DNA of 64,000 nucleotides from an uncultured Acidobacteriota bacterium (lineage in GTDB: Bacteria > Acidobacteriota > UBA6911): the NCBI GenBank assembly GCA_963718845.1, contig CAVRAD010000017.1, positions 403,154 to 467,153 of the forward strand, in the 5' to 3' direction. Every line of letters starts with the position of its first letter. The stretch's first letter is position 1. Positions 27,932 through 60,668 of the stretch are shown one piece after another. Both the position numbers and the translations under genes were made by a program. Under the pieces are notes generated by a model. That model made no database searches and was not told the DNA's origin. It saw nothing but the letters and a program-made list of their open reading frames with translations.

Positions 27932-28121
27932 CCGCCGTCTCGGTTAATGCCGCATCTTTTTTGCAGGGCGAAGCTTTCGGAGATGTGCGGCTGTTCGCTG
28001 CCGCTTTCGATAAAGAGCTGAAAAACATGGGTTTTGAGCGTTTTTAAAAGCGGCAGCAAGCTGCCGCACTCCGAAGGCGCCCTGAGGGCGCAAAAAGTAT
28101 GCGGCATTAGCCGTCTCGGCG
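27932..28121. repeat. approximately 190-bp non-coding element bounded by about 33-nt inverted repeats (MITE-like or structured RNA)
   Basis: Left end ccgccgtctcggttaatgccgcatcttttttgc; right end gcaaaaagtatgcggcattagccgtctcggcgg. The core contains the perfect hairpin gcggcagc-aa-gctgccgc (28050-28067). A partial copy, aaagcggcagcaagctctgcc, lies at 27845-27865. Confidence 0.45.
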
Positions 28122-28225
28122 GCTCTTTGAAGAAGAAGCTGAAAAGAAGGCAAATACTCCATATTTTGCTCGGAAATCGCGATTGCCAGCAGCCGGCCGG
28201 CGGGACGCCGGCGCTCCCAGGGATG

Positions 28226-29768
28226 TCATGGAAGCCTGGCCACGTTTGTTTTGAAATAGTCGACGCGCACCCGCTCCACGATGGCGTTTACCGGCTCGTC
28301 GAGATACTTGGTGAAGAATGTCGGATAGATGCCGATCCAGAATGCCAGGATGATCAGCGGGACGAAGGTCGCCAACTCTCTCATATTCAGATCCGGCAAA
28401 GCCTTGTTCAGCGGATTCTCGATCTTCCCGAACATCACGCGCTGATACAGCCACAGCATGTAGGCCGCCCCGAGCACGATTCCGATCACGGCAAGCGCCG
28501 CGTACGGCCACAAGCCCGGAGCCGCGAACGTTCCCTGAAGAATGATAGAATTCCCCGATGAAACCGTTCAAAGCAGGCATCCCGATGGAACTCAGCGTCA
28601 TGATCAGAAACACCGTCGCGTACACCGGCATGATGTGGCTCAATCCGCCATACTCTGAGATCAAGCGCGTGTGGCGCCGCTCATAAATTACGCCGACGAT
28701 CAAGAACAGCGCGCCGGTGGAGATGCCGTGGTTGATCATCTGCAGGATGCCGCCCTGAAGGGAAACGGGCGTCGCCGCAAAAACTCCCAGCATCACAAAT
28801 CCCAGATGGCTGACCGAAGAATAGGCCACCAGCGATTTCATGTCTTTCTGCATCATCGCCACGAGCCCGCCATAAATGATTCCGATCAGCGAAAGAATCA
28901 GCAGCGGCTTTAAAAAATGCATCGTAGCCCACGGAAACATCGGGAGAGAAAAACGCACGAAACCGTAGGTCCCCATTTTCAGCAGAACGCCTGCCAGGAT
29001 GACCGATCCGGCTGTGGGCGCTTCCACGTGTGCATCCGGCAGCCACGTGTGGAACGGAAACATGGGAACCTTGATCGCAAAGCCGACGAAGAAAGCAAGG
29101 AAGACCCAGAACTGCAGGTCCGTCGGGAATCCCAGTTTCTGGAAAGCGAGAATATCGAAGGAATAGACGCCTGAAACATCGTGCTGATAGAAGTAGATTG
29201 CCAGGATGCCCACGAGCATGAGCACGGAACCGGCCAGAGTATACAGGAAAAACTTAATGGCCGCATACAGCTTCCTGGGTCCGCCCCAGACTCCAATCAG
29301 GAAATACATGGGCACCAGCATGACTTCCCAGAACACGTAAAAGACCAGAAAATCGAGAGACATGAAGACGCCGAGCATGCCGGTTTGCAGCAGCAGCATG
29401 AACGCATAGTATTCCTTGACGCGGTCTTTAATTGCGGTCCATGAGGAAAGAATGGCGATGGATCCCAGCAGGGTCGTCAACAGAACCAGCAGCATGCTGA
29501 TTCCGTCGATCCCGAACTTGTATGCCGCCCCGAGCTGCGGAATCCAGGGATGCTCATAGAGAAACCGGAATCCGTTTGGATTGATGAATCGCGGATCATT
29601 GAATGCCGTCAGGAGCGGGATGGAAATCAGGAAACCCACGAAAGCGGTGATGTTGGCGATCCACTTGATCGCGATCTCGTTTTCCCGCTTCATGAACATA
29701 ATCACCACCATTCCCGCCAGCGGGAGGTAGCAGACTATGTTCAGGATATTATTCATAAAAAAGTCCAT
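28226..29768 (-). CDS. nuoM: NADH-quinone oxidoreductase subunit M, one frameshift near 28550
   Basis: FYVFWEVMLVPMYFLIGVWGG...FPFHTWLPDAHVEAPTAGSVILAGVLLKMGTYG...SSVSHLGFVMLG. The C-terminus continues in ORF 28226..28513. Confidence 0.85.
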
Positions 29769-29788
29769 TGCATCCGACTCCCGAATGA

Positions 29789-29858
29789 GATTCCAGATTC
29801 GAGATTCCAGATTCCAGATTCGAATTTCAGTCTGGAATCTGGAATCTGGAATCTGGAA
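29789..29858. repeat. inverted heptamer arrays (GATTCCA x about 6 / TCTGGAA x 4) forming a long hairpin
   Basis: The sequence gattcca gattcga gattcca gattcca gattcga atttcag | tctggaa x4 fills the nuoL-nuoM spacer. Confidence 0.85.
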
Positions 29859-31920
29859 TTAAAAGTTAAGCAGTCCGTTGTAATAAATCAAAATAAAAAC
29901 CACGACGCCAACGACCGCCGCCAGCACATATCTCTGGATAAGTCCCGTCTGAAAGGATGTGGCCACGCGATTCAACTTCATGTTGATCCAGCCGACAAAA
30001 TTGACCAGGCCATCCACGATGTAGGTATCGAACAATCTTGACAGCGTAGCCGTTCCGCGCGTTGATGGCCGCAGTCAAATTGACCGCGCCATCCACGAAC
30101 TTGGAATCCACGAAAAAACACGCTCTGCCAAGGTCCTTTAGTGCGGTTGACGAAGAGCGCGTCGTACAGTTCATCCACATAATACTTGCGGTACACCAGG
30201 GTATAGTATCCCTTGATCTTTTCGGCAAACCTGTCCGCCATTCCGGGACACTTCACATAAAAGCGGTGCGCCAAGAAAATACCCGCCAGAGCGATCGCTA
30301 CAGAAAGCGCAGTGAATAGGAATTCCTGCCCCGCGGAATGATGAATCGCCGCCTCGTGGCTTGCCGGGAGCCGCAAAACCGGCTCCAGAAAATGCTCAAA
30401 CCTGTTGGCAATGCCGGTCCATCCCGGAAAGCCCGACAAAACCGCCGACAGTCGACAGCACCGCAAGGGCAGCCAGCGGGTAGACTACATTCCTGGGTGA
30501 CTCGTGGATGTGATGCCGGGTGTGATCATCCATCCTCTCCTGTCCCCAGAACGTCAGGAAGAGAAGCCGGAACATATAAAAGGCCGTCATGCCTGCGCCG
30601 CACCACAGCAGGAACCAGATAACCGGATGGCCGTTGCTCCATGCCCGCCACAGAATTTCATCCTTGCTGAAGAATCCCGCAAACGGAGGAACTCCGGCAA
30701 TCGCGACGGTGCCCGCAAACATCGTCCAATAGGTCCAGGGCAGGTATTTTTTCAGCCCTCCCATCTTCATCATGTCCTGCTCATGGTGCATGGCCATGAT
30801 GACCGATCCGGAACCGAGGAAAAGGAGCGCTTTAAAAAAGGCGTGCGTCATCAGGTGGAAGATGCCGCCGACAAAAGCCCCCACTCCAAGCGCCGCGAAC
30901 ATATAGCCCAGCTGGCTAACAGTGGAATAAGCCAGGACGCGCTTAATATCGGTCTGGGCAAAACCGATCGTCGCGGCAAAGATCGCGGTCAGGGATCCCA
31001 CGACTGCCACGATGATCAGGGTCTCGGGCGCCCGGCTGTAGAGAGCGTTGCTTCGGCAGACCATGTAAACGCCGGCCGTCACCATCGTGGCGGCATGGAT
31101 GAGGGCGGATACGGGGGTAGGACCTTCCATCGCATCCGGCAGCCAGACATACAGGGGGATTTGGGCGCTCTTGCCGCAAGCTCCGATGAAGAAGCAGAGC
31201 GTTGCCCAGAAGAGAAAATCGTGGCCGGTCTGAATCGGCATCGCAGCCGCACTATTGAACACCTCTTCAAAACGCAGCGAACCGAAATGCACGAAAACGA
31301 TCATCATTCCCAGAATGAATCCCGCATCCCCGATCCGATTTACTACGAATGCCTTTTTCCCGGCATCCCCTGCGCTCTTTTTGTCGAAATAAAATCCGAT
31401 CAGCAAGTAGGAGCACAGTCCCACTCCCTCCCACCCGACGAACATCATCACGTAGTTGTTGGCCAGGACCAGGGTGAGCATCGCAAACATGAAGAGGTTC
31501 AGATAAGAGAAGAAGCGATAATACCCGCTGTCGTCCCACATATATCCGGTCGAATACACGTGAATCAGGAAACCAACGCCCGTAACGACCAGGATCATCA
31601 CGGCAGAAAGCGGATCCAGCTGAAATCCCCAGGGCACTTCAAACGTGGCCATGCCTCCGTTCGCCAGGGGAAGGGATCCACTGCTTAGCCACGTAAAGAG
31701 GTCGAGGGAGAACAGCTCTTTGTGTTCAACGGCAAAGAGCTGATACACACACAGCGCGCTCACAATAAAGGCGAGCGCCGACAGATCCAAGAGCGATGAC
31801 GGAAACAAGCCTCTTGTTCAGCTTCCTGCCGGCGCTGCGCAGTGTTATCAATCCTGTCAGGCCGATGAGCGCACTCCCGGCTAACGGCAAACTCGGTATC
31901 AACCAGATATATTTCAGCAT
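29859..31920 (-). CDS. nuoL: NADH-quinone oxidoreductase subunit L, about four frameshifts (near 31790, 30440, 30140, 30050)
   Basis: MLKYIWLIPSLPLAGSALIG...; core ORF 30396..31808 (FVGWEGVGLCSYLLIGFYF...WLPDAMEGPTPVSALIHAATMVTAGVYM). My translation of the last frame ends ...FQTGLIQRYVLAAVVGVVVFILIYYNGLLNF*. Confidence 0.85.
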
Positions 31921-47154: not shown

Positions 47155-47586
47155 ATGACTGAATCAAAGCATGGGAAATATGTAGTAACAGATCTGATCA
47201 TTCCTGAAGATAAAAAGAAAATCGCCGCCGATTATGCCAAGTACGCCACGCGGATCCTCTGGATGGATGAGAATGTGGTCGAAGGAGCCTTTCACATGAA
47301 TACGGCCTGGTATCTCAAAGCCGCAACGACACTGGAAGACAAGCCTCACGCCCACGAGAACGACGAAATCATCGGATTTTTCGGCAACAATCCCGATAAT
47401 CCACACGATCTGGGCGGAGAAATAGAAATCTGGCTTGAGGATGAAAAACACATCATCACCAAAAGCGCCCTGCTATTTGTGCCCGCGGGAATGAAACACT
47501 GTCCGCTAGTGCTGCATAGGGTTGACCGGCCCATATTCCATTTCACAACCGTGCCCAACGGCCGGTACATAAAAGATGAGAAATAG
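47155..47586 (+). CDS. hypothetical protein, cupin-like
   Basis: 143 aa: PHAHENDEIIGFFG...GGEIEIWL...LLFVPAGMKHCPL resembles the two cupin motifs. The assignment is tentative. Confidence 0.4.
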   Translation: MTESKHGKYVVTDLIIPEDKKKIAADYAKYATRILWMDENVVEGAFHMNTAWYLKAATTLEDKPHAHENDEIIGFFGNNPDNPHDLGGEIEIWLEDEKHIITKSALLFVPAGMKHCPLVLHRVDRPIFHFTTVPNGRYIKDEK

Positions 47587-47661: not shown

Positions 47662-47884
47662 CAGCAACTTCCAAGCACTCAATTAGGCTTTTTTAACTTC
47701 TTTTTTTCTTCAAAACGCCAGCGTTTGTAATGCCCCCTGCTAAAATCGCTTTTCCCTATTTCAAATTCTGGGTCATTTAACCCATTTTACGCCCAAAAAA
47801 CCAAATCGGTCTGTCTTTTTTATTATAAATTACATCAAAATATAGCTCTAATTATTTATTATTATTAGCTTTATAAAATTGGCA

Positions 47885-47913
47885 TGGAATACGCCTTTCG
47901 CATCCCCTATAAT
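47885..47913 (+). promoter_or_regulatory. candidate sigma70-type promoter of the hydrogenase operon
   Basis: TGGAAT, a 17-nt spacer, then a perfect TATAAT (47908-47913), about 47 nt upstream of the first ATG and inside an AT-rich stretch of about 300 bp. Confidence 0.3.
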
Positions 47914-47959: not shown

Positions 47960-49410
47960 ATGGGAATTGAATCGCAAGCTATAGCAGTCATTCTGGTTCC
48001 CTTGCTTGCTTCTTTGATCATCCCGCTTATGGGATGGGCCGGGCAACGCAAGGCAACGGGATGGCTGGCGGTCCTGATAATTGGCTCCACGCATCTTCTC
48101 ACCTGGCCGCTACTGGGTCCGGCGCTGTCCGGGCAGATCGGCGGGCAGTCTTTCCCCATATACCGCTTTATCGCATTTTCGATGAACATCGATGCGCTGG
48201 CGGTGTTTATGGCGTTCACGGCTTCGCTGATTGCCACGCTCATTGCCGTCTATTCACTGGGCTATATCGAGCATACCGACCACGAACCGGAATACTACTT
48301 CATCGTGACGCTGTTCGTCGGCGCGATGATGGGGCTTGTCTTTTCCCGAAACCTCATATTCCTCTATCTGTTCTGGGAAATCTCCGCGCTCGCCTGCTGG
48401 CGCCTGATCGGATACTTCAGGGATCCTGAATACGTATGGAAAGCCGACAAAGCGTTCCTCATCACTTTTGGCGGTGCGGTATTCATGCTGCTGGGGTTTG
48501 CCCTGATTTTCACTCAGTACGGAACATTCGACATCGATGAACTCCGGGGAAAGGAGATCGGCACTGCCGCCCTCATCCTGGTCATGGCCGGTATCTTCAG
48601 CAAGAGCGCCACCGTGCCGCTGCACACATGGCTCCCTGATGCCGGAATTGCTCCGTCGACCATTACCTCCTTGCTGCATGCGGCGATCCTGGTAAAGATC
48701 GGGCTGTATGCATTTGCGCGCCTGTTCTGCAACGGCATGACGATCCGGCCGGAAGCACAGACTTGGCTCCTGGCCTTCGCATTGATGAGCGCCTTCGTGT
48801 CGGCAAGCGCAGCGCTACACGAAACAAACATCAAGAGACTATTGGCCTATTCAACGGTCAGCCAAATCGGATACACCTTCCTCGGACTGATTGTGTTTAC
48901 GCATTACGGCTATATGGGAGCGCTGCTGTATATCATGGCGCACGGATTCGCCAAGGGCGGGCTGTTCCTCTGCGCAGGCATCATCGAGCACGGCACTCAT
49001 ACCAAGGACATGACCAAAATGGGCGGGCTGTTCAAAAAGATGCCCATCACGGCGGTCTGTTACCTGTCTGCGCGCTGAGCATCGCCGGGATTCCGCCGAT
49101 GATGGGATTTTTCAGCAAGTATTTCGTCATCAACGGATTAGTGGAAGGGAGGCATTTCGTGATCGCCACCCTCGCAATCCTGACGGCCATCCTCACGCTC
49201 CTTTATATGCTGAAAAGCTTTCACGTTGTATTCCTCGGACAGCCTCGAGGGGAGGCACACCATGAAGGCAGCCCCGTCATGGTGGGAGTGGTGGCCGTCA
49301 TGGCCTTCCTTACGCTTGCCAGCGGCTTTCTGCTGCAGTTGCCCTTCAACCTGGTCAAGGTCGCAGATGGACAACGCCTGGTTAACGTCGTCAGCCTTCT
49401 GTGGAGATAG
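47960..49410 (+). CDS. hydrogenase/complex-I antiporter-like subunit 1 (NuoN/MrpD/HyfB family), one frameshift near 49060
   Basis: LFWEISALACWRLIGYF..., SATVPLHTWLPDAGIAPSTITSLLHAAILVKIGLYAFARLF..., LLAYSTVSQIGY. The C-terminus is in the frame of ORF 48763..49410. Confidence 0.8.
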
Positions 49411-49413
49411 GTT

Positions 49414-51243
49414 ATGAACGCATCCATGTTACTATTGGCACCTGTCCTCTTTCCCCTGCTCCTTGCGGTTTTTGTGCTGCCTTTCTGCCGAAGAAATCCG
49501 AAAATCGGAGCGGCTCTGATTCTGCTTTCGGTCGTTGTTTCCGGGCTCGCATTTTGGATGGCGTCCGCATCTTCTCCCAAGGTGGAGTATTCGTGGGTTG
49601 AGTCTTTCACGCTGAGCTTCAGCCTGAACAGTTGGAAAACGTTTCTGCTCTGCTTCGTGTTCCTTTTCCAGCTCATGACAGCCATTTATTCGCTCGGCGC
49701 TCCCCGGCCGGCGCGCCCGCACTTGTACTCCTTTTCGCTGCTCCTGGCATTTTCCTCCGCTATGCCTGGTACTTCTGACCGACAACCTGCTGATTCTTCT
49801 TATTGGCTGGGAACTGTTCCTGGTTGCGCTGTATATGATGATTAACAGCGGAGGGGAAAAAGCCGAACCCGTGGCGCGCAAGGCTCTTGTGATCGGCGGG
49901 GCGAGCGACTTTCTGATGATCTTGGGATTGATGCTCTTTTTCTCTCTTGCCCCGGATCATACGATGAACGCCCGGATCGCAATCGCATCAAATCCGCTGG
50001 CCTTCTGGTCTTTCTTTCTGATCTTCCTGGGAGCTGGCGCTAAAGCCGGAATGTTCCCGTTTCACACATGGATCCCGGATGCCGCCCAGGTAATGCCTGC
50101 CTCCGGTTTTGCGGCGATGCCGGCTTCTCTGGAAAAAGTGCTGGGCATCTACTTTCTGTTTCGTGCTGACAAATCAGATGTTCGTTCTGGACGCGGTCGC
50201 GCGCAGCTGCATGTTCTGTCCTGGGCATCGCGACGGTCTTTGTGGCGATCGTCCCGGCACTGGTTGAAAAGGATTTGCGCAAAGTGCTGGCATTGACGGC
50301 GATTTCCCCGGTCGGCTTCATGCTTTGCGGGATGGCAGTCTCAGAAGCCGCCGGATTTGCCGGAGCGCTGCTGTATATGCTGACTCACGCGACCTACAAG
50401 TCGGCCATGTTTTTCTCACTGGGCAACTTTGAAGAAAAGGCCGGAGGCTCGCAACTGGACCAGCTTCTGGGGATTGCGCGCCGCATGCCGCTTTCGGCCA
50501 CAGCCTTCCTTATGGCGTTCGTGGCGGCGATTTCCCTGCCGCCTACGGGCGGATTCATGGCCAAGGAGCTTATCTTTGAAGGAGCTCTGGAAGGAAAGCA
50601 TATTCTTGTGCTGGCCTTCCTTATCGCCGGAGCGATCCTCAACGTGGCGGTCTTTTCCAAAGTCATCGCGGTGCTTTGGGCTCCGGGAGACGCCCGGAGA
50701 AACGAAGCCAACGGCGTGTGTGTCATTCCGGCAGTCATCCTGGGCGTTGCCGCTCTGGTCGGCGGCTTTTTCTTTCGCCGCGCCGGCGGGCTTCTGGGCG
50801 AAGTCACCGGCGCTCATGAATCGGGCTTGCTGTCCAGCGTGTGGCACTTCTCTCCCCTGACGATCGTCTCGCTGGCGATTTACACGCTGGGCTTCATGGT
50901 GTTTGCGGGGGCACGCAGCGGCCGCGAGAATGCTGCGGAAACGTTCAATCCGCTGGCAACATCTCCAGTTCTCGGCCCGGCCCTGCGCATGGCGAGAGAA
51001 AAGAAATTTGACGCGTATGACATCGGGCTGAAGGGGGTCGATTTCATAACCCGGATCGTGTTCCGCTACGTGGAGCGCATGATCGATGTGCTTGGCCAAT
51101 TCGTCATCCGCAGCGGCCGCTGGCTTTTGCGCCCGGTATTGAGCGGCGCCCATAACGGCATGTACGGCAATTACCTGTGCTGGACTGTCGCAGGTCTTAT
51201 TTTCGTGTTGTTTTACCTGTTCGGCTCCGCCCTCCTGGGCTGA
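49414..51243 (+). CDS. antiporter-like subunit 2 (NuoL/MrpA-like with C-terminal extension), about three frameshifts (near 49765, 50165, 50215)
   Basis: LLIGWELFLVALYMMI..., GAKAGMFPFHTWIPDAAQVMPASGFA..., LALTAISPVGFML..., THATYKSAMFFSLG. A long C-terminal segment is present (GLKGVDFITRIVFRYVERMIDV...). Confidence 0.75.
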
Positions 51244-51267
51244 CGGAGAATAGATTAAGAATTCGAG

Positions 51268-51323
51268 GGAGTCAGAATAACAGCAGATCCTTTTCATTCT
51301 GACTCCTGAATTCTGGCTCCTGA
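51268..51323. repeat. hairpin (GGAGTCAGAAT...ATTCTGACTCC) plus 14-nt direct repeat (ATTCTGACTCCTGA/ATTCTGGCTCCTGA)
   Basis: Read directly in the spacer between antiporter-like subunits 2 and 3. Confidence 0.6.
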
Positions 51324-51334
51324 CATTGAGGTTT

Positions 51335-52780
51335 ATGATGGAATCATACATAGTCTGGATCCTGCTGGTACCGCCCATCGCGGTTCTGCTTATGCCGTGG
51401 GCATCCCGTGCGGGCAAGTGGGCCGCAAACACCCTGGCGATCGCAGCGACGGGGCTTCTGCTGCTCTTTACCCTCCGGCTCATTCCTTCAATCGGGAACG
51501 GGCTGAGGTTCGAGATATTACGGAGCCCGGTTCGCACTGGATAGCGTCAGTCTCCTGTTTCTGGTGGTGGTCAATGCGGTTGCGTTCGCATGCATGATGT
51601 ATGCGACATCCTACATCGGCCATCTCGGAGGCCGGGGAAAGTTCTTTGCCCTGATGATAATCATGGTGTCTGGACTGAACGCGATGCTGCTGACGCGCGA
51701 CCTTTTCAGCCTGTACGTATTCCTCGAAGTGGCATCGATCGCGTCGTACGTGCTGGTTGCGTTCGGGCTCGAGATGACGGCATCGAATCGTCCATCAAAT
51801 ACCTGCTGCTTTCCGCGGTCGCGACGTCGATGATTCTGCTGGGGATCGCGCTGATCTACATGAACACCGGCACTTTGGAGTTTGACGCCTGAAGGGCGAT
51901 CCTGGCGGCCAGGGGGAGATCTTCCTGGAATATTCCTGCTGACGGCGGCGCTCTTCATCGGCGGCTTTGGACTGAAGGCCGCTCTGATGCCGTTCCACTG
52001 CCTGGCTGCCGGACGCGCACCCATCGGCGCCGGCCCCGATATCGGCCATGCTGAGCGGCGTCGTAATCAAGGTTGCAGGCGTCTACGCCCTGGCCCGCAT
52101 TTTCCTCTATATTTTCCCGGCGATCGGCCAGGTGCACGACATATTCCTGATCCTGGGGACGTTTTCGATGATTGCCGGTGCGGTGCTCGCCTACTTCCAG
52201 CGCGACTTCAAGCGCATGCTGGCATACTCGAGTATCAGCCAGATCGGCTACATCATGATCGGGCTCGGCCTTGGAAATCTGCTCGGGTCTGATCGGTGCG
52301 CTTTTCCATGTTTTCAACCACGCGCTTTTCAAATCCCTGCTCTTCTTGAACAGCGGCGCGGTCCAGTACGGCTGGGCACGCGCGACATCGAGGAAATGGG
52401 TGGGCTGGAGAACCGGATGCCGGTCACCAGCATTACGAGCGTATTCGGCACGCTTTCGATCGCCGGCGTGCCGCCTTTCAACGGGTTCTGCAGCAAGCTG
52501 TTCATCATCCTCGGGGCCCTGGCGGCGGGAAAGACTGCCATCGCCGTGCTCGCGATCCTGATGAGCATTTTCACACTCGGGTATTTCCTCATCATTCAGC
52601 GCAAAGTGTTCTTCGGGAAAGCTCAACGAAAAATGGCAGGACATCCGCGAAGCTCCCTTTGCCATGTCGTGTGCCGTCATTCTCCTGGCTGCCGCATGCA
52701 TTCTGAGCGGGATCTTTTTCCAATCCGTCACACGCGGCATCGTGGAACCGGCGGCCTTGATTTTACTGGGAGGCAAATAG
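51335..52780 (+). CDS. antiporter-like subunit 3 (NuoM/MrpD family), about nine frame changes
   Basis: My reconstruction across all three frames: ...FALDSVSLLFLVVVNAVAFACMMYATSYIG..., SLYVFLEVASIASYVLVAFG..., GLKAALMPFH.WLPDAHPSAPAPISAMLSGVVIKVAGVYALARIF..., MLAYSSISQIGYIMIGLGLG..., ALFHVFNHALFKSLLFL..., ends ...IVEPAALILLGGK*. Confidence 0.75.
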
Positions 52781-52781
52781 G

Positions 52782-53268
52782 ATGCTGCTTTGGATTCTTC
52801 TGGGATTGCTGGTCTTGCTCTCCATCGGCTGCTGTATATTTCAGGATCTGCTGTATGTCGCGGTTGCCTGGCGACGGTTTCCGCGATTCTGGCGCTCGTG
52901 CTATTCCATTCGGCGCCAACATCGCCGGGGTTTTTGAATTGAGCGTCTGCGCCGGGCTGATTACGGTGCTTTTCATTGCCACGGTCAGTCTGACCAAGGA
53001 TTCCGACCAAAAAGTGGAGACGCGGCTGCCGGCCTACTTCGTCCCCCTGGTTGTGCTGATTTTCATCGGCATGGACTATTTCATCATGCAGTGGCTGGCG
53101 CATTCGGTGCTGCCGCTGGTGACGCCGACGCGTCGGGGACATTTCAGAAGGTGTTCTGGGAAATCAGGAGTGCCGACATCCTCGGCCAGATTGGCCTGAT
53201 ACTGGCGCGGCGTCTTCGGAATCCTTTCCCTATTCCGCCTCGCGGGGAAGGAGAAAAAACATGAATAA
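52782..53268 (+). CDS. MrpB/MnhB-like membrane subunit (MbhD/E/F-like), about four frame changes
   Basis: Reconstructed: MLLWILLGLLVLLSIGCCIFQDLLYVAVA..ATVSAILALVLFHSAPNIAGVFELSVCAGLITVLFIATVSL...VFWEIRSADILGQIGLILAGVFGILSLFRLAGKEKKHE*. The AP..A..E..V.AG..TVLF and R..D.LG motifs are MnhB-like. Confidence 0.6.
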
Positions 53269-53570
53269 CGAAATCTTCCTTTTATTGAGCTGCGGCATTG
53301 CTGGTGTTGATGCGGGCGTCTATATACTCATCCTGTACCGCAATCTCCTGCGCTTGATCATTGGAGTGGAGATCATTGCAAAAGGCGTCACTTTGGTATT
53401 TCTCGCGGCCGGGGATCCATCGTCAGGATGTCGGCTTCATACAATCGCTGATCGTCACATTTATCATCGTCGAAACAGTCCTGGCCGCCATCATGCTGGC
53501 ACTGGCCGTCCGGGCGCAGAAAATATACGGTTCGCTGGACATTCGCAATTTATCCAAACTGAGGGGATAA
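53261..53570 (+). CDS. MrpC/NuoK-like membrane subunit (HyfE/MbhG-like), one frameshift near 53412
   Basis: MNNEIFLLLSCGIAGVDAGVYILILYRNLLRLIIGVEIIAKGVTLVFLAAG joins to ...FIQSLIVTFIIVETVLAAIMLALAVRAQKIYGSLD. The ATG overlaps the upstream stop. Confidence 0.65.
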
Positions 53571-53572
53571 CA

Positions 53573-53903
53573 ATGGATCTGTCGATACTTTTATCACCAC
53601 CGGTGGCTTTCCTTGTATGCCTCGGCTCAGCGCCGGCATTTACGGTTCGGCCACTGGTGGAAGAGAAAGGCCGTGCCGGTAAAGGGCAAATACGAACCCT
53701 ATGCCTGCGGTGAGAATTACAAAGCCGAAAAGTTCCATTTCGGATACAGGAAATTCTACATTGCGGCCATCTTTTTCACCATCATGCATGTAGCGGTCCT
53801 GACGATTGCAACGGTACCCGGCGGCGCCGGCGCCTATCGCGCCCTGATTTACCTGGGGGCGATTGCAGCTTCCATTTCCTGTATCTATATGGAATTCGAT
53901 TAG
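53573..53903 (+). CDS. small membrane subunit, NuoA-like, one frameshift near 53655
   Basis: MDLSILLSPPVAFLVCLG..., then KGKYEPYACGENYKAEKFHFGYRKFYIAAIFFTIMHVAVL. Compare the NuoA K..YECG....F.v.FYlvAilFliFDvE pattern. The assignment is tentative. Confidence 0.45.
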
Positions 53904-53984
53904 AAGCTCGTGGATTCCGAGAGACGTCGGGAGTCCGAATCCGGAAGTCAGAATGCGCAGTTCATCAGTAAACTCAGAGGCCAT

Positions 53985-54418
53985 ATGCTGGAAAAACTCA
54001 AGACTTGGGCCAGGGTAAAATCTCCCTGGATTTTGCATTTCAACTCGGGGGCCTGCAATGGCTGCGACATTGAGATCCTCGCGGCCCTGATGCCCCATTA
54101 CGATCTGGAACGGTTCGGCGTTCTTCTGAAAGCCTCGCCGCGCCACGCCGATATCCTGGTGTGCAGCGGGCCGGTAACAAAGCAGATCGCGAAGCGCCTG
54201 CGCCGCATCTATGACCAGATGCCGGAACCCAAGTTTGTCGTTGCGGTCGGCGCCTGTGCCTGCAGCGGCGGCGCATTTCGCGGCTGCTACAACGTGATGG
54301 AAGGGATCGACAGGTCATCCCGGTTTCAGCATACATTCCCGGATGCCCCATAAGACCGGAAGCGATCATCGACGGCGTGGCCAAGCTGCTCGGCAGCCTG
54401 CAGAAGAAGACTGCGTAA
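53985..54418 (+). CDS. [NiFe]-hydrogenase small subunit, group 4 (NuoB/HycG/MbhJ-like), one frameshift near 54312
   Basis: MLEKLKTWARVKSPWILHFNSGACNGCDIEILAA..., PKFVVAVGACACSGGAF... After the frame change: VIPVSAYIPGCPIRPEAIIDGV. All four cluster cysteine positions are present. Confidence 0.85.
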
Positions 54419-54426
54419 AAGGAGGA

Positions 54427-56095
54427 ATGACCATGACAGTGGATTTTGAAGCAAGATTGAAGGAGGCATTCCCCAACTCGGGTAACCCTCGGATCAAACG
54501 GCCGATTCTGGGTTGCACTGACTCCGGATGGATTGATTCCGGCCGTTATCGACCCTGCGCGAGAAGTTCTCGCATCGTCCAGCTGGCCGTTATCGTCGGC
54601 GAAGATGTGCGCGACGCGTTTCTGGTGCAATTACATATTCACCGGCGAAAAAGTCGTCGTGCTGCAGGTCCGGATAGACCACGAAAAACCAGAAGTCCCG
54701 ACACTGGCCGACATATGCCCGGCGCCATCGTCTACGAACGGGAACTGAAGGACCTGTTCGGCATCAATCCGGTCGGGCATCCCGACCTCCGACGCCAGGC
54801 CGTGCCCGAAGAATGGCCGGAAGGCGTTTACCCGCTGCGCAAAGATGTGCAATTCAACAAAACAGAGGAATCTGAGCAAAGGAGGCAAAATAACATGGAT
54901 GAATCGACCTTTCGCATACCCATAGGCCCGCAGCATCCGTTCCTGAAGGAACCGGCCAAATTTGATTTCGACATCCACGGAGAAGAGATCGTCGGCGCCC
55001 GCATGAACATCGGGTACAACCACCGTGGAATCGAAAAAGCCTGCGAAGAACGGAATTATTACCAGTGCCTTTACCTCCTCGAGCGCATCTGCGGCATCTG
55101 CTCCCACTCCCACACGACCGCGTTTGTTCAGGCGGTCGAAGAAATCATGAACCTGGAAGTGCCCCGGCGCGGGCTTTATCTGCGCACGCTGGTTTGCGAA
55201 CTGGAACGGCTGCACAGTCATCTGCTCTGGCTTGGCGTCGCGGCCCATGAGGTCGGTTTCGACTCGATGTTCATGCTGGTCTGGCGCGACCGTGAACTCG
55301 TCATGGATATCCTGGAGGAGATCAGCGGAAACCGGGTCAACTACGCAATCAACACGATCGGCGGAGTGCGGCGCGACCTTACCGACGCGCAGCGCAACAA
55401 AGATCCTGAAGCATGCTTGGCATCCTCAAACAGCGGCTCGACTACTACGTCCACATCGGCACCAACGAACCCAGTTTCGTGGGTCGCATCCAGGGCGTCG
55501 GCAAACTGCCTCCAAACGCGCGGCCGAGATGTGCGTGGTCGGGCCTTTTGCCCGGGCCAGCGCAGTAGATACCGATATCCGCCGCGACGACCCATACGCC
55601 GCCTACCGGGAGCTCGATTTCAAGGTAATCACGCACGACTCGGGCGATATTTACGGCCGCGTGATCGTGCGCGTCTTGGAGATCGTAGAATCCTGCAAAA
55701 TGATCGAACAGCTGCTGACAAACCTTCCCGAAGGGGACATCGTCGCACCCAAAGTGTCGCGCAAAGCACCCGCCGGCGTTGCCGTCAGCCGCTACGAGGC
55801 CCCGCGCGGGGAAGACGTCCACTTCGTCCGCGGCAACGGCACGGACAAGCCGGAGCGGGTCCGGGTTCGCGCCCCCACGATGGCAAATCTCGAGGCGGCC
55901 ACCGAATCGGTCATCGGTTCCTACGTAGCCGACATCCCGATCGCGATCGCATCCATCGACCCGTGCTTCTCGTGCACGGACCGCATGGCAATCGTGCTCC
56001 GCGATCGCAAGAACGGAACCCGGGTCACCACATGGGAAGAACTGCGCCGCTACGGCATTGATTGGTACGGCAAAAACAAAGGGATCCGTTTCTGA
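54427..56095 (+). CDS. [NiFe]-hydrogenase large subunit, group 4, HycE-like NuoC-NuoD fusion, about seven frame changes
   Basis: NuoC-like part: ...EKVVVLQVRIDHEKPEVPTLADICPGAIVYERELKDLFGINPVGHPDLRR. NuoD-like part: MNIGYNHRGIEK...LLERICGICSHSHTTAF (L1 Ni motif) ...VVGPFARAS...PRGEDVHFV...ASIDPCFSCTDR (L2 Ni motif). No stop separates the two parts in the sequenced frame; total about 556 aa. Confidence 0.85.
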
Positions 56096-56111
56096 TCCTG
56101 GGGGGGAGTGA

Positions 56112-57079
56112 ATGGAAGTCATCAAGCCAATTTTGTATATCCTGGTGTTCCCCGGTTTTGCTTTCCAGTTCGTCTTTTCGACTTACCTGGAATGGATGGA
56201 CCGGAAACTCTATGCGCGCATGCAGAACCGGCGCGGCCCGCTGTACACCGGCTATCAGGGCATCCTTCAGCCGTGGCCGATATATTCAAGCTCTTCTTCA
56301 AGGAAGATATCGTTCCGGCCGGTGCCGACCGCTTCATGTTCAGCCTTATGCCGATCCTGGGACTTGCCGCGGTGGTAACAGCCGGGCTGTATATCCCCGT
56401 GTGGTTTTTCACGCCGTACAATTCATTTGAAGGCGACCTGATCGTCGTGCTCTATCTGCTCTCGATCCCCACACTGGTGCTGTTTCTCGCAGGCTGGTTT
56501 TCTGTCAGCCCCTTCAGCCTGATCGGGGCGACGCGCGTTCTTACGCAGCTGTTCGCCTATGAAGTCCCGTTTTTCCTTGCCCTGCTGACTCCGGCCGTGG
56601 TTGCCGGAAGCTGGAAGATCCAGAAAATCGCGGCATTCCCCTGGACCAGCGGCGCCTGGTGGGTCATCCCGCTCCAGATACCGGCATTCGTGGTAGCGCT
56701 GCTGACTCTGCAGGCGAAGCTTGAGCGCGTTCCGTTCGATATCCCCGAGGCCGAGACCGAAGTAGTCGGGGGACCGTTGACGGAATACAGCGGCAAAAAG
56801 CTGGCGATGTTCCGGATTCAGAAAGATATCTTGATGCTGGTCGGCTCGGCATTCATCGCGGCTCTGTTCCTTGGCGGCTTCCTGGGCGGGATCTGGCTGG
56901 GCGGGCTGCAGCTTATGATAAAAACGATTTTCATCGTCTTCCTGCTCAGCGTCATCCGGGCGGCATTCGCCCGGATCCGAATAGACCAGATCGTGACTTT
57001 CAGCTGGAAATACCTGGCGCCCGTGAGCCTGATCCAGCTTTTGATCGTTCTTCTCCTCAAAGGAAATGGAGTATTTTAA
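56112..57079 (+). CDS. membrane subunit NuoH/HycD/MbhM-like, one frameshift near 56270
   Basis: MEVIKPILYILVFPGFAFQFVFSTYLEWMDRKLYARMQNRRGP... joins to ADIFKLFFKEDIVP...ERVPFDIPEAETEVVGGPLTEYSG. Confidence 0.8.
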
Positions 57080-57081
57080 TT

Positions 57082-57480
57082 ATGGTAGCAGGTGTATTTA
57101 TCCCCGAGCTGTTAAGCAATTTGGCCGAAACCCCGGCGACGCGCGGATATCCCTTCACAAAAGCTCTGGTTGCCGAAGGATTCCGCGGCACGCCGCGCAT
57201 GAGACCCGGCCTCTGCGTCGGATGCCAGGCTTGTGTGCGCGATTGCACATCGGAAGCAATTGAAATCCTGTTGAAACCGCCCAGCCCGTCTGATCCCCCG
57301 CTGGAAGAAGGGAAGAAGCCGGCGAAGAAGTTCCAGATGATTCTTTATCTGGACCGATGCATTCATTGTGCCCGCTGCGCCGAGGTTTGTCCCAAAGACG
57401 CGATCTATCTCGACCAGGAATTCGAAGTCGCAAATTTTACCCGCGAGCCTTGCGGCTTGTGTTTGAATAGGATTCCGGAT
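57082..57480 (+). CDS. 2x[4Fe-4S] ferredoxin subunit NuoI/HycF/MbhN-like (3' end uncertain)
   Basis: CVGCQACVRDC and CIHCARCAEVCP motifs. The sequenced frame reads through a heptamer array into the next gene (track ORF 57082..57744), so the true stop is probably lost to an indel near 57450-57480. Confidence 0.7.
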
Positions 57481-57497
57481 TCCGGCTTCCAGATCCT
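57470..57497. repeat. short heptamer array (GGATTCC GGATTCC GGCTTCC AGATCCT)
   Basis: Read directly at the NuoI-like / protease junction. Confidence 0.4.
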
Positions 57498-57508
57498 CGA
57501 AATTCGAG

Positions 57509-57978
57509 ATGGTGAATATAGACACGCTTTCAGAAATTTTAAAGACCCGTCCCCTATTGCTGCTGGGGATGGGCAATCCTTTGCGCGGGGACGATGCCAT
57601 AGGGCATCTGCTCGCGGAAGAGTTGGAACCCCTCAATCGCGAGGGGTTCCAGGCCCACGCCGTGGGAACGGCAGTCGAAAACGCCATGCGCTGGGTTCGC
57701 GAAACCGCCGGCGGGACACTCCTTCTGGTGGATGCCGTATTTGACGAAACGCTCGCAGAAGGATCCTGGGCTTTCTATCCACCAAGCAGCTCGATTCCAT
57801 CTGCCATTCCACGCATTCCATCCCGCTCTCCATGCTGATTTCCTACTGGCAAAAGGAAGTGCCTGCCCTTCAAGTATATTTTCTCGGTATCAGCATCCGC
57901 AGCAGCATGGATATGGCCCCGTTATCCCCAACTCTGCGGCAAACTCTTCAATCTTTGAAATCACTCTTTCACGAATAG
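57509..57978 (+). CDS. hycI: hydrogenase maturation endopeptidase (HycI/HyaD family), one frameshift near 57790
   Basis: PLLLLGMGNPLRGDDAIGHLLAEEL...LLLVDAV... After the frame change: QLDSICHSTHSIPLSMLISYW...VYFLGI. Confidence 0.75.
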
Positions 57979-58035: not shown

Positions 58036-58470
58036 TCAGAAAACCAACGGCACAATGCGTTTCGTTCGGGCAGCATAGTTTGCATATTCAGGGTATCGCT
58101 CCAGGAGCAGGCTCTCCTCGGCTCTCACGCGCATTCCGGCGCCTACACTGAGAAGCAGCGCCATAGCTACCGAAAAAACGGACAGGTGTCCCAGGCTGCT
58201 CGCCCAGGCAAAGAGGCAAACGCTTGCATAGATTGGGTGCCGGATGAACCGGTACGGCCCATCCGTAACAAGCCCGCCGTCGGTTGGCGTCGCACTTGCA
58301 TGAAAACTGCGTCGCCCGAACGTCACGCGCGCCCAGAGCATGAGAAAAACCGCAAGCACCTGACAGGCAATCACCAACGGGGTCGCGGACACAATAACCC
58401 GACCGGCAATCAATCCCGCAAGTCCTGCGACCATCAGCATGAATCCGATTCTGGATTGTGAGGTTCTCAC
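58036..58470 (-). CDS. isoprenylcysteine carboxyl methyltransferase (ICMT/PEMT) family membrane protein
   Basis: 144 aa: GPYRFIRHPIYASVCLFAWA...EESLLLERYPEYANYAARTKRIVP. Confidence 0.6.
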   Translation of the reverse strand: MRTSQSRIGFMLMVAGLAGLIAGRVIVSATPLVIACQVLAVFLMLWARVTFGRRSFHASATPTDGGLVTDGPYRFIRHPIYASVCLFAWASSLGHLSVFSVAMALLLSVGAGMRVRAEESLLLERYPEYANYAARTKRIVPLVF

Positions 58471-58732
58471 ATCTGACTCCCCAAATGAGAGGTTAAACTT
58501 GAATTACATAAAATTTCATCGCGGAGAGGCTGCCGATTGCCCCTGCATTTCGTGCAACCATAGTGCATCAATAAGGTTTTGATTTCCTTAACAAAAGTTG
58601 GAAATGCACGATCGAAAGGCCGAAGAATAAATCTAATTATCTATATCAGTTTACGCGAGGCCTTGAATCGGGATATATTGGATCGATGCGTCTACATGTC
58701 TTCGGCTGAATTGTATAAGGAGATGAAATCCA

Positions 58733-59599
58733 ATGTTTTCTCACGCGTACAGGAAAAGGAATTTGCTCTTATTATTAGCTTTAATCGTATCCCTTTGCCT
58801 TGCGCCGGCCGCTTCCAGCCAAGAAGCACCTGATCTCAAAAGTTTGCCAATTCCTCCGGACCTTAAATCTCAGGTCCAGCTATCCATTGACTTGGGTCGT
58901 GAACTCTATTGGCAGGACAAGGCATCGGCGATCGGCACAGACGCCCTAATGGAAAAACTCGGCACATTGGAGGGAAAGGGGCTGATCGGATATATAACTG
59001 TGCGGGAAGGAAACGATGTTGGCAAACCGTTGCCATCGTTTTTGGTGCTGTTCTTCACTGGGGGCGATTTCCCCAAAATTTCATATCGAATACGCGTCCC
59101 TATGGTGCAGGGGCAAAAGCCTCAGGTGGAGGCCTTGCCGGTTGCTGAAGAGCCGAATGCAGGGATTTTGAATCTGTTCCGCGCTCGGCAAACCGCACTT
59201 AAGGCTTTGCAGCCTTTTCACCAGCCCATCAACCCAGTAGTTCTTCCGGCAGAAGCAGTTGGGCAAAAGGGAGTGCTTGTGGAACTGCTTGCCGGCACGA
59301 ACAAACCGGATATCGTGGTGTTGGGGAAACACTACAGGGTCATTGTCAGCGAAGATGGTCGCCAAGTGCAGCAAGTTATGCCGCTTTCCAAAACGATGCT
59401 AGAACTCAAAAAGGACAACAACACCGTTGCGCTCTTTGTGACACACCTCGTGACAGATTATCCTTTGGAAACTCACGTATTCGCCAGCATGCTTAATAAT
59501 ATTGATATCTGCGTTGGAACACAGAGAGGGATTTGGCTAGTCAAGAAGGACGCCATAGCTCTTAGCTCTCTGGACGTGCCCGGCAAGAAAAACAAGTAA
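58733..59599 (+). CDS. hypothetical secreted protein
   Basis: 288 aa with a signal peptide (NLLLLLALIVSLCLAPAASSQ) and AAGGAG upstream. I recognise no family. Confidence 0.45.
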   Translation: MFSHAYRKRNLLLLLALIVSLCLAPAASSQEAPDLKSLPIPPDLKSQVQLSIDLGRELYWQDKASAIGTDALMEKLGTLEGKGLIGYITVREGNDVGKPLPSFLVLFFTGGDFPKISYRIRVPMVQGQKPQVEALPVAEEPNAGILNLFRARQTALKALQPFHQPINPVVLPAEAVGQKGVLVELLAGTNKPDIVVLGKHYRVIVSEDGRQVQQVMPLSKTMLELKKDNNTVALFVTHLVTDYPLETHVFASMLNNIDICVGTQRGIWLVKKDAIALSSLDVPGKKNK

Positions 59600-59616
59600 T
59601 GCAAAGCAGGGAGGAG

Positions 59617-59646
59617 TCTGGAATCTGGAATTTGGAATCGATTCGG
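59617..59646. repeat. heptamer array (TCTGGAA TCTGGAA TTTGGAA) ending in palindrome GAATCGATTC
   Basis: Read directly between convergent genes. Confidence 0.7.
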
Positions 59647-60589: not shown

Positions 60590-60668
60590 ATTCCAGATTC
60601 CGGATTCCAGATTCCATGATTTCCGATTGTATTTAGTTCGGAATTTCGGAATTTGGAATTTGGAATCG
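60590..60668. repeat. inverted heptamer arrays (ATTCCAG-type x about 4-5 / TTGGAAT-type x about 4)
   Basis: attccag attccgg attccag attccat ... cggaatt tcggaat ttggaat ttggaat, in a divergent spacer. Confidence 0.85.

Follow-up and report, generated by a model that had tools for sequence, protein, structure and literature searches.

A 64,000-nucleotide (nt) stretch of DNA from an uncultured Acidobacteriota bacterium (contig CAVRAD010000017.1 of assembly GCA_963718845.1; hereafter the window) carries a complete [NiFe] hydrogenase module, its own maturation protease and a full complex-I-type membrane subunit set in one operon. The operon occupies positions 47960-57978 of the forward (+) strand, from the first ATG at 47960 to the stop codon of the last gene at 57976-57978, and consists of 12 genes in the order L-M-N-J-K-A-B-C-D-H-I-HycI, each found at full length by frameshift-aware alignment against the proteins of the related locus L004. 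We regard it as probable that these genes encode an energy-converting [NiFe] hydrogenase of group 4, membrane-bound, functional and made of 11 subunits, together with a HycI protease, and that the enzyme is ferredoxin-coupled, reversible and proton-pumping; within this reading we infer the ferredoxin partner, the direction of the reaction, the pumping of H+ over Na+ and the arrangement of the subunits.

On the raw + strand the genes are tightly packed and split into numerous overlapping open reading frames (ORFs) in differing frames. Pfam searches of these fragments detected three copies of Proton_antipo_M along with Oxidored_q3, Oxidored_q2, Oxidored_q4, Oxidored_q6, Complex1_30kDa, NiFeSe_Hases / Complex1_49kDa, NADHdh (NuoH) and a 2x[4Fe-4S] protein. 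The intact L004 proteins were then mapped onto the window by a self-written protein-to-DNA aligner in which frameshifts are allowed. In the intact orthologous clusters (L004/L005 and L002) the 12 genes encode proteins of 483, 608, 480, 162, 102, 110, 144, 152, 399, 322, 129 and 155 amino acids (aa), and the corrected window proteins are 81-97% identical to their L004 counterparts; the large subunit of L004/L005 is 92% identical to that of the window, and that of L002 88%. Intergenic gaps are 94 nt at most, all 12 ORFs are accounted for, and every one of the 12 genes could be assigned to a subunit by Pfam, NCBIfam and PDB matches (Table 1). The initial annotation of this DNA had counted eleven genes; its coordinates, gene content and gene order were confirmed, while the count becomes twelve, as NuoC and the large subunit are separate genes.

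The hydrogenase arm

The large subunit carries the L1 motif RICGICSHSH at 55084-55113 and the L2 motif DPCFSCTDR at 55958-55984, in different raw reading frames. The window and all relatives have the sequences CGICSHSH and DPCFSCTDR, with all four Ni-ligand cysteines kept. Group-4 motifs have been defined as C[GS][ILV]C[AGNS]xxH for L1 and [DE][PL]Cx[AGST]Cx[DE][RL] for L2 (PMC7886697). Both motifs, a NuoB-like subunit, a NuoI-like 2x[4Fe-4S] subunit, a NuoH-like anchor and at least one antiporter-like subunit, the features by which a group-4 enzyme is recognised, all occur in the cluster. The second motif is followed by a C-terminal extension of exactly 36 residues (55985-56092), in agreement with the length of about 36 noted initially. 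The best PDB matches of the large subunit were MbhL (309 bits, 5e-91), HycE (276 bits), NuoD (about 200 bits) and MbsL (180 bits), and intact 399-aa homologues with 95-96% identity were found in other assemblies.

The last gene encodes the dedicated HycI-type protease that had been proposed for it. It scored 68 bits against TIGR00072 (cut-off 47.45), Pfam PF01750 being sub-threshold at 15.7 bits, and it matched the E. coli HycI structures (2e85) with E = 3e-8, the GDD, VDA and TH motifs being aligned. The retained NiFe-ligand cysteines and the maturation protease set the enzyme apart from the non-hydrogenase relatives (respiratory complex I, Ehr, Mbx and MBS), which have lost these cysteines. 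With the Ni ligands, the C-terminal extension and the HycI-type protease all present, the initial view of a true group-4 hydrogenase, and not an Ehr/Mbx derivative, is upheld.

The HycE-like fusion of NuoC and NuoD described earlier proved to be a single-indel artefact. A 1-nt deletion near 54875 carries the reading frame past the NuoC stop codon into the large-subunit gene (ATG at 54895) and thereby causes the apparent fusion, and the two are separate genes in all close relatives (L001-L005). Genuine C-D fusions were found in more distant relatives, namely L017 (592 aa) and L023 (560 aa). The NuoB-like subunit is 96.5% identical to that of L004. For the NuoI-like subunit the top NCBIfam matches were the iron-sulfur subunit of formate hydrogenlyase (FHL), HyfH and NuoI.

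The membrane arm

The first antiporter-like subunit, 93% identical to its L004 counterpart, had Nqo12 (195 bits) and MrpA (189 bits) as best PDB matches. The second is more divergent; its best PDB match was NuoL with 112 bits, and the NCBIfam NuoL model spans residues 7-601. As in NuoL, its C-terminus has about 90 non-hydrophobic residues followed by a last transmembrane helix (TM) at residues 590-608. An AlphaFold2 model of the C-terminal 333 residues contains a 39-residue helix and a terminal helix, with a mean predicted local distance difference test score (pLDDT) of 56 and values below 50 in the helix region, and is suggestive of a lateral helix in this pump. The third subunit matched MbhH (6cfw_H) with 274 bits (2e-80) against 195 bits for the runner-up. 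Judged from the intact L004 orthologues, all three pumps have retained the four proton-channel residues known from complex I, namely TM5 Glu, TM7 Lys, TM8 Lys and TM12 Lys.

For the NuoJ- and NuoA-like subunits the Pfam scores were likewise obtained from the intact L004 proteins. The NuoJ-like subunit scored 36.5 bits against PF00499 (cut-off 33.2) and its PDB matches ranked MbhD above MbsD above NuoJ; in place of the MrpB-like label given initially, NuoJ (from the Pfam hit) and MbhD (from the best structure) are both defensible. The NuoK-like subunit matched MbhG with 37 bits and NuoK with 30. The NuoA-like protein has three hydrophobic segments and scored 26.1 bits against PF00507 (cut-off 23.3). 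A PDB search with the single sequence gave no matches. A profile of the nine-sequence NuoA-like family matched NuoA/ND3 chains only, across all three helices (best E 9e-4), and no MbhI. Its PYACGE sequence lines up with P(F/Y)ECG, a motif in the loop between TM1 and TM2. The Pfam score above cut-off and the exclusive NuoA/ND3 matches bear out the NuoA-like assignment, which had been only putative.

The membrane anchor matched Nqo8 (164 bits), NdhA (154) and E. coli NuoH (151) far better than MbhM (96), MbsM (94) or HycD (82). When the subunits were compared with E. coli references, B, C, D and I were closer to Hyc/Hyf, and H, J, K and A were closer to Nuo. Taken together, the Pfam and PDB assignments agree with the earlier listing of three antiporter-like subunits and NuoK-, NuoA-, NuoH-, NuoB- and NuoI-like subunits.

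An anchor so much nearer to genuine NuoH/ND1 than to MbhM or HycD, together with the NuoA- and NuoJ-like subunits and a menaquinone biosynthesis gene in the window, could be taken to mean that the operon encodes a quinone reductase of the complex-I type or an H2:quinone oxidoreductase in place of a hydrogenase coupled to ferredoxin. We find this barely credible, as the Ni-ligand cysteines and the maturation protease are retained and the NiFe site fills the position of the quinone head-group pocket in complex I and Mbh structures. Further, strong NuoL and NuoM homologues elsewhere in the window hint at a separate canonical complex I, though no other nuo gene was found there.

Table 1. Genes of the hydrogenase operon, with positions in the window, strand, length of the corrected protein, supporting family and number of frameshifts
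Feature	Positions	Strand	Length (aa)	Family or match	Frameshifts
Antiporter-like subunit 1, NuoL/MrpA-type without C-terminal lateral helix	47960..49410	+	483	PF00361, PF00662	1 (at 49068)
Antiporter-like subunit 2, divergent, NuoL-like C-terminal extension	49414..51243	+	608	PF00361	3 (at 49765, 50162, 50220)
Antiporter-like subunit 3, MbhH orthologue	51338..52780	+	480	PDB match	7
NuoJ / MbhD-E-like subunit	52782..53268	+	162	PF00499	4
NuoK / MbhG (MrpC)-like subunit	53261..53570	+	102	PF00420 in both fragments	1
NuoA/ND3-like subunit, 3 TM, long TM1-TM2 loop with PYACGE	53573..53903	+	110	PF00507	2
NuoB-like hydrogenase small subunit	53985..54418	+	144	PF01058	1 (at 54316)
NuoC-like subunit, separate gene, TAA 54891-54893	54433..54893	+	152	PF00329	6
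[NiFe] large subunit	54895..56095	+	399	PF00374, PF00346	3 (at 55402, 55415, 55513)
NuoH-like membrane anchor, complex-I type	56112..57079	+	322	PF00146	1
NuoI-like 2x[4Fe-4S] subunit	57082..57470	+	129	Fer4 families	1
HycI-type hydrogenase maturation endopeptidase	57509..57978	+	155	TIGR00072	1 (at 57786)

Relatives and distribution

The identical 12-gene order was found in ten GTDB species representatives, all of them metagenome-assembled genomes (MAGs) of Acidobacteriota, and on many metagenome contigs. It was also found in Bacillota (L018), including the cultured isolate Hydrogenispora ethanolica (L022, GCA_004340685.1), and a Margulisbacteria large subunit fell into the same tree clade as the window family. 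The initial annotation had regarded the combination of traits as unusual; this does not hold, as the same order is widespread in bacterial MAGs and occurs in one isolate, and the 11-subunit set has been published for Hfo (PMC7886697). To judge from sequence comparison, the operon family is a conserved bacterial variant of the 11-subunit complex-I-like hydrogenases and not a one-off chimera.

A neighbour-joining tree was built from 130 large-subunit representatives and E. coli HycE, HyfG and NuoCD. The window family grouped with the L025-type and a Methanoregula-type sequence at 73% bootstrap, outside the 4a clade, which itself had 100% bootstrap. The window clade and the Bathyarchaeota Hfo-type clade were neighbours, with a bootstrap of 6% for the joint clade, and the window large subunit is 52% identical to a Bathyarchaeota Hfo-type large subunit; the tree gave no firm placement with respect to either the Hfo-type or the Mbh-type clades. 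Among the reference-clade names recovered were Methanoregula, Bathyarchaeota, Asgard, Thermoplasmata, Synergistales and Acidilobaceae, and no Thermococcus Mbh label.

In the neighbouring clade, L025 (53% large-subunit identity) has the order J-K-A-B-C-D-H-I-HycI, and hypA, hypB and a hypF fragment lie immediately upstream, which ties the family to NiFe maturation. At 3446-6396 of L025, hypA, hypB and the truncated hypF, of which 278 aa with the N-terminal domains remain, border directly on an antiporter-like gene that is itself cut short (334 aa); such a junction suggests a deletion or a misassembly that joined hyp genes to the hydrogenase operon. In the distant relative L017 (4493-16036), where the fused NuoC-NuoD occurs, a complete F-type ATP synthase operon follows about 2 kb downstream of the hydrogenase cluster with a single TPR-repeat gene between the two. 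In H. ethanolica (SLUN01000035.1, 14382-20807) the hydrogenase cluster is followed after about 1.3 kb by a pair of nitrogenase-like Oxidored_nitro genes together with genes for a NifH-like ATPase and an ABC transporter, and upstream of it we observed a Crp-family regulator and a 4Fe-4S protein.

Our literature searches returned no paper describing the bacterial gene order L-M-N-J-K-A-B-C-D-H-I-HycI. A peat study assigned hydrogenases of Acidobacteria to groups 4b and 4d and listed them without description (PMC9599518), and the nearest mention was a 'Mrp-Mbh-like' cluster without oxidoreductase module in Saganbacteria (PMC6349859).

Proposed function

In the mechanism that we propose, reduced ferredoxin would donate electrons to the NuoI-like 2x[4Fe-4S] subunit as the sole entry point, and from there they would travel via the NuoB-like cluster to the NiFe site and reduce H+ to H2 in a reversible reaction. 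In the manner of complex I, Mbh and Ech, this redox reaction would be coupled, conformationally and electrostatically, to ion translocation via the three pumps and the NuoH-, NuoA-, NuoJ- and NuoK-like subunits; the coupling is drawn by analogy with Mbh and complex I (PMC8165549). If the complex I analogy also extends to the arrangement, the MbhH-like pump 3 would sit beside J and K, and pump 2 with its C-terminal extension would be distal.

The ferredoxin partner is supported by the gene lists of the related loci, since neither a formate dehydrogenase nor a CO dehydrogenase nor any other input module is a conserved neighbour at any locus examined. HydDB counts the Mbh-type and Ech-type enzymes as ferredoxin-coupled (PMC5037454), and the group 4g and Hfo enzymes have been presumed to be so (PMC7886697).

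Several points weigh against a functional enzyme of this kind. Frameshifts are more frequent in the locus (31 per 10.0 kb, 3.1/kb) than in its flanks (9 per 6.5 kb, 1.4/kb; p = 0.02), and a homology-free Viterbi detector based on codon usage called 14 in the locus (1.4/kb) versus 17 in the other 54 kb (0.3/kb; p = 1e-4). By tblastn, hyp genes are absent from the window. No biochemically characterised family member was found in our literature searches. Finally, as estimated from standard potentials, the energy of electron transfer from ferredoxin to H+ is too low for four complex-I-like proton channels and suffices for about 1-2 protons per H2, so that the stoichiometry, the direction or the partner may differ from those proposed. 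The same energy puzzle applies to E. coli Hyf. Possible resolutions are a low stoichiometry, mainly reverse operation or an unrecognised partner.

Reverse operation would mean that the same enzyme uses the proton-motive force (pmf) to drive H2-dependent ferredoxin reduction, supplying low-potential electrons for biosynthesis or fixation; we consider this possible but rather doubtful. It is the direction proposed for the 11-subunit Hfo by Loh et al. (PMC7886697). A full complex-I-like arm with three intact pumps would be easier to reconcile with strong coupling to the pmf than with the weakly exergonic step from ferredoxin to H+, and the H. ethanolica cluster lies within a few kb of nitrogenase-like genes. 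On the other hand, H. ethanolica is a fermentative H2 producer, and both Mbh and FHL evolve H2. The ferredoxin-coupled subgroups 4d, 4e and 4g are also listed in HydDB as oxidising ferredoxin and reducing H+ (PMC5037454). No sequence feature fixes the direction, and we continue to favour the reversible, ferredoxin-coupled proton pump described above.

Frameshifts in the locus

All 31 frameshifts in the locus are of 1-2 nt. The only whole-codon indel is in NuoC, there are no larger deletions, and the lone apparent in-frame stop (51892) has an indel close by on either side and is best put down to misalignment. The frame changes are almost certainly errors in the consensus of a long-read assembly and not signs of a dead locus, because flanking genes are hit too, the ratio of non-synonymous to synonymous substitution rates (dN/dS) is 0.10 and the relatives assembled from short reads are intact.

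With the L001 proteins as reference, the flanking genes contain 2 frameshifts in topA, 1 in an M28 peptidase gene, 2 in a gene for a small membrane methyltransferase and 4 in lgt; farther off in the window NamZ and other housekeeping genes are also split, and frameshifts occur in a photolyase and in NuoL. The long-read MAG contigs L001 (Microflora Danica, CAVXIH010000002.1) and L003, both with Flye-style names, have 3-4 frameshifts at positions unlike those of the window, and the short-read assemblies L002, L004 and L005 have none. The indels that distinguish the window from L001 are of one base each and lie mainly outside homopolymers.

The dN/dS was 0.10 for both window-L003 and window-L001, against 0.09 for L001-L003. 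Codon changes private to the window lineage comprise 49 synonymous and 23 non-synonymous ones, are biased to third positions and create no stop codon. The non-synonymous share is thus 32%, compared with about 72% expected if the sequence were neutral (p = 2e-12).

If the frameshifts were real, this would be a decaying pseudogene cluster whose hydrogenase is dead in the source organism. The sheer number within 10 kb and the density above that of the rest of the window speak for decay, but the small size of the indels, a dN/dS on par with that of intact relatives, the shortage of non-synonymous changes, the frameshifts in the adjoining essential genes topA and lgt, and the different or missing frameshifts in sister assemblies make it very improbable. 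The many frame changes pointed out in the initial annotation are therefore real in the sequence as assembled, whereas the dead locus that it offered as an alternative is not supported.

By region, the Viterbi detector found about 0.1-0.2 frameshifts/kb in the first 20 kb, about 0.5/kb around 20-30 and 40-64 kb, and 1.4/kb in the hydrogenase locus. For the 2-4 times denser indels of the locus, the candidate causes that first suggest themselves are local coverage and a mixture of strains.

Sequence elements and genomic neighbourhood

Promoter and terminator scans of the sequence gave no excess over shuffled sequence, and Rfam gave no matches inside the locus. A possible -24/-12 element of the sigma-54 type, TGGCAT-N5-ACGC, precedes the first gene at 47880-47894. 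A perfect TATAAT is found at 47908-47913 in the AT-rich spacer 5' of the gene, where the consensus sigma-70 scan reported no full promoter. The spacer that separates pump genes 2 and 3 contains an inverted repeat of about 20 bp at 51258-51313 (+) (GAATTC..GGAGTCAGAAT / ATTCTGACTCC..GAATTC), which may form a hairpin, with a predicted RNA folding energy of -24.5 kcal/mol (z = -3.3 versus shuffles); this region is rich in indels and longer in L001. Similar GGAATC/GATTCC-rich repeats are present in the spacers 57470-57500 and 60617-60650, and their lengths differ between the window and L001.

In the flanks that L001 has in common with the window we find genes for TopA, a peptidase, an EF-G-like GTPase and Lgt, and the ORFs adjoining the locus had other functions or no family match when scanned with Pfam. 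A tblastn search of the window found no hyp, hycB, hyfA, hydN or fhlA homologue; fdhF and cooS were not searched directly. These results agree with the earlier remark that no electron-input module is adjacent. In the search of the window for hyp, hyc, hyf and nuo homologues, only the locus itself and a separate nuoL-nuoM pair on the - strand (28107-31808) were recovered. The pair, with 51% identity to NuoL and 43% to NuoM of E. coli, has no further nuo gene beside it; CoaE lies upstream, an ORF with a nucleotidyltransferase domain lies downstream, and NuoL is split by a frameshift near 30400.

About 370 nt 5' of the operon there is a 143-aa ORF (47155-47586, +) with a weak Cupin_2 match (E = 9e-4) and no NCBIfam match. 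It occupies the same position in L001, L003, L004/L005/L006 and L011, and is absent from L002, L008 and L009. On the other side of the operon, a segment of about 1.2 kb (58458-59644) is absent from the otherwise collinear L001 and contains a 288-aa ORF (58733-59599) without Pfam or NCBIfam match.

Significance

The concept of an 11-subunit hydrogenase is published for archaea, and the present family is abundant in databases under generic names. We tentatively suggest that the cluster represents an unnamed bacterial lineage of [NiFe] hydrogenases with 11-subunit complex-I architecture, a bacterial counterpart of Hfo in which a hydrogenase-type arm is joined to a NuoH/NuoA anchor. In this lineage the anchor may be nearer to complex I than the structurally solved MbhM and HycD, with all three pumps intact.

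Complex I is thought to have descended from a membrane-bound hydrogenase, and enzymes that retain the NiFe site alongside a full NuoA/H/J/K/L/M/N arm would come nearest, among living systems, to that intermediate. To date the archaeal Hfo alone, seen in metagenomes only, has been singled out in this role. In its bacterial version the enzyme is widespread among Acidobacteriota of soils and wetlands and among fermentative Bacillota, and its cultured isolate would make the electron partner, direction, ion specificity and pumping stoichiometry measurable. If our suggestion is right, H. ethanolica would be a living model of the transition from hydrogenase to complex I, accessible to genetics and biochemistry, and could reveal how the low-energy H+/H2 couple is matched to a proton pump with four channels. 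With its bacterial form, a different operon layout, complex-I-like NuoH and NuoA and a cultured host, the family is a good experimental target. The family also bears on the production and consumption of H2 by abundant soil bacteria. For annotation, the locus is a warning that indels in a long-read consensus can produce a false gene fusion and a false look of decay.

Comparison with known systems

The layout differs from those of Hyc, Hyf, Mbh and Ech in both gene order and subunit set, as had been noted initially. The published system with the same inventory is Hfo, the Fpo-like 11-subunit [NiFe] hydrogenase described for Bathyarchaeia in 2021, which HydDB placed in the heterogeneous, uncharacterised group 4g and which has been termed group 4g-6 (PMC7886697). 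Both have the same 11 subunit types, that is A, B, C, D, H, I, J, K and three L/M/N-type pumps; both keep the NiFe ligands and lack the MbhABCF Na+ module. In neither cluster is an input module of the NuoEFG/FpoFO type encoded, and no other input gene was seen beside the hydrogenase genes of the Hfo-type contig L023. This contig, whose large subunit belongs to a Bathyarchaeota-labelled cluster, gave better matches to the window (B 70%, D 50% with 408 bits and H 40% with 234 bits) than any E. coli Nuo, Hyc or Hyf protein in the same BLAST. The two systems differ in that Hfo, here L023, has the order A-B-CD-H-I-J-K-L-M-N as in nuo/fpo with C and D fused, whereas the window family has the order L-M-N-J-K-A-B-C-D-H-I-HycI with C and D separate. 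Further, the window cluster includes hycI, its hosts are bacterial, and one of its pumps is an MbhH orthologue.

Mbh of Pyrococcus furiosus (14 subunits, group 4d, PDB 6CFW) provided the best structures for the large subunit, pump 3 and the J- and K-like subunits, and is ferredoxin-coupled. The MbhJ-K-L-M-N order of the mbh operon equals the B-C-D-H-I block. In contrast to Mbh, the window cluster has no genes for MbhA, B, C and F (the MrpEFG-type Na+ module), for which the short intergenic gaps leave no room, and it has three antiporter-like subunits where Mbh has one. Its NuoH-like subunit scores 164 bits to complex I (Nqo8) against 96 to MbhM, and its A-like subunit matches NuoA with no match to MbhI.

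Hyc (FHL-1) and Hyf (FHL-2) of E. coli (group 4a, PDB 7Z0S) share with the window the HycI-type protease and the HycE-like C-terminal extension, and the NuoB-, NuoC-, NuoD- and NuoI-like subunits score higher to Hyc/Hyf than to Nuo. One could thus picture an FHL-type (group 4a/4f) enzyme with its formate dehydrogenase encoded elsewhere. However, the large subunit is 38-39% identical to HycE and HyfG and falls outside the 4a clade, no HycB/HyfA-type connector or FdhF was seen beside the window cluster or any other examined locus, and C and D are unfused in the window and its close relatives, so we consider such an enzyme very unlikely and retain the ferredoxin-coupled hydrogenase. The window cluster also differs from Hyc and Hyf by its NuoA- and NuoJ-like subunits, which a 2011 survey found to be seemingly absent from every hydrogenase (PMC3144371).

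Against the core of respiratory complex I (NuoABCDHIJKLMN), finally, the operon shows the same inventory of 11 types with the charged residues of the pumps kept, and its H, A, J and K subunits score higher to Nuo than to Hyc/Hyf. It differs from complex I in the lack of NuoEFG, in gene order, and in a NuoD homologue that retains the NiFe ligands and needs a maturation protease.

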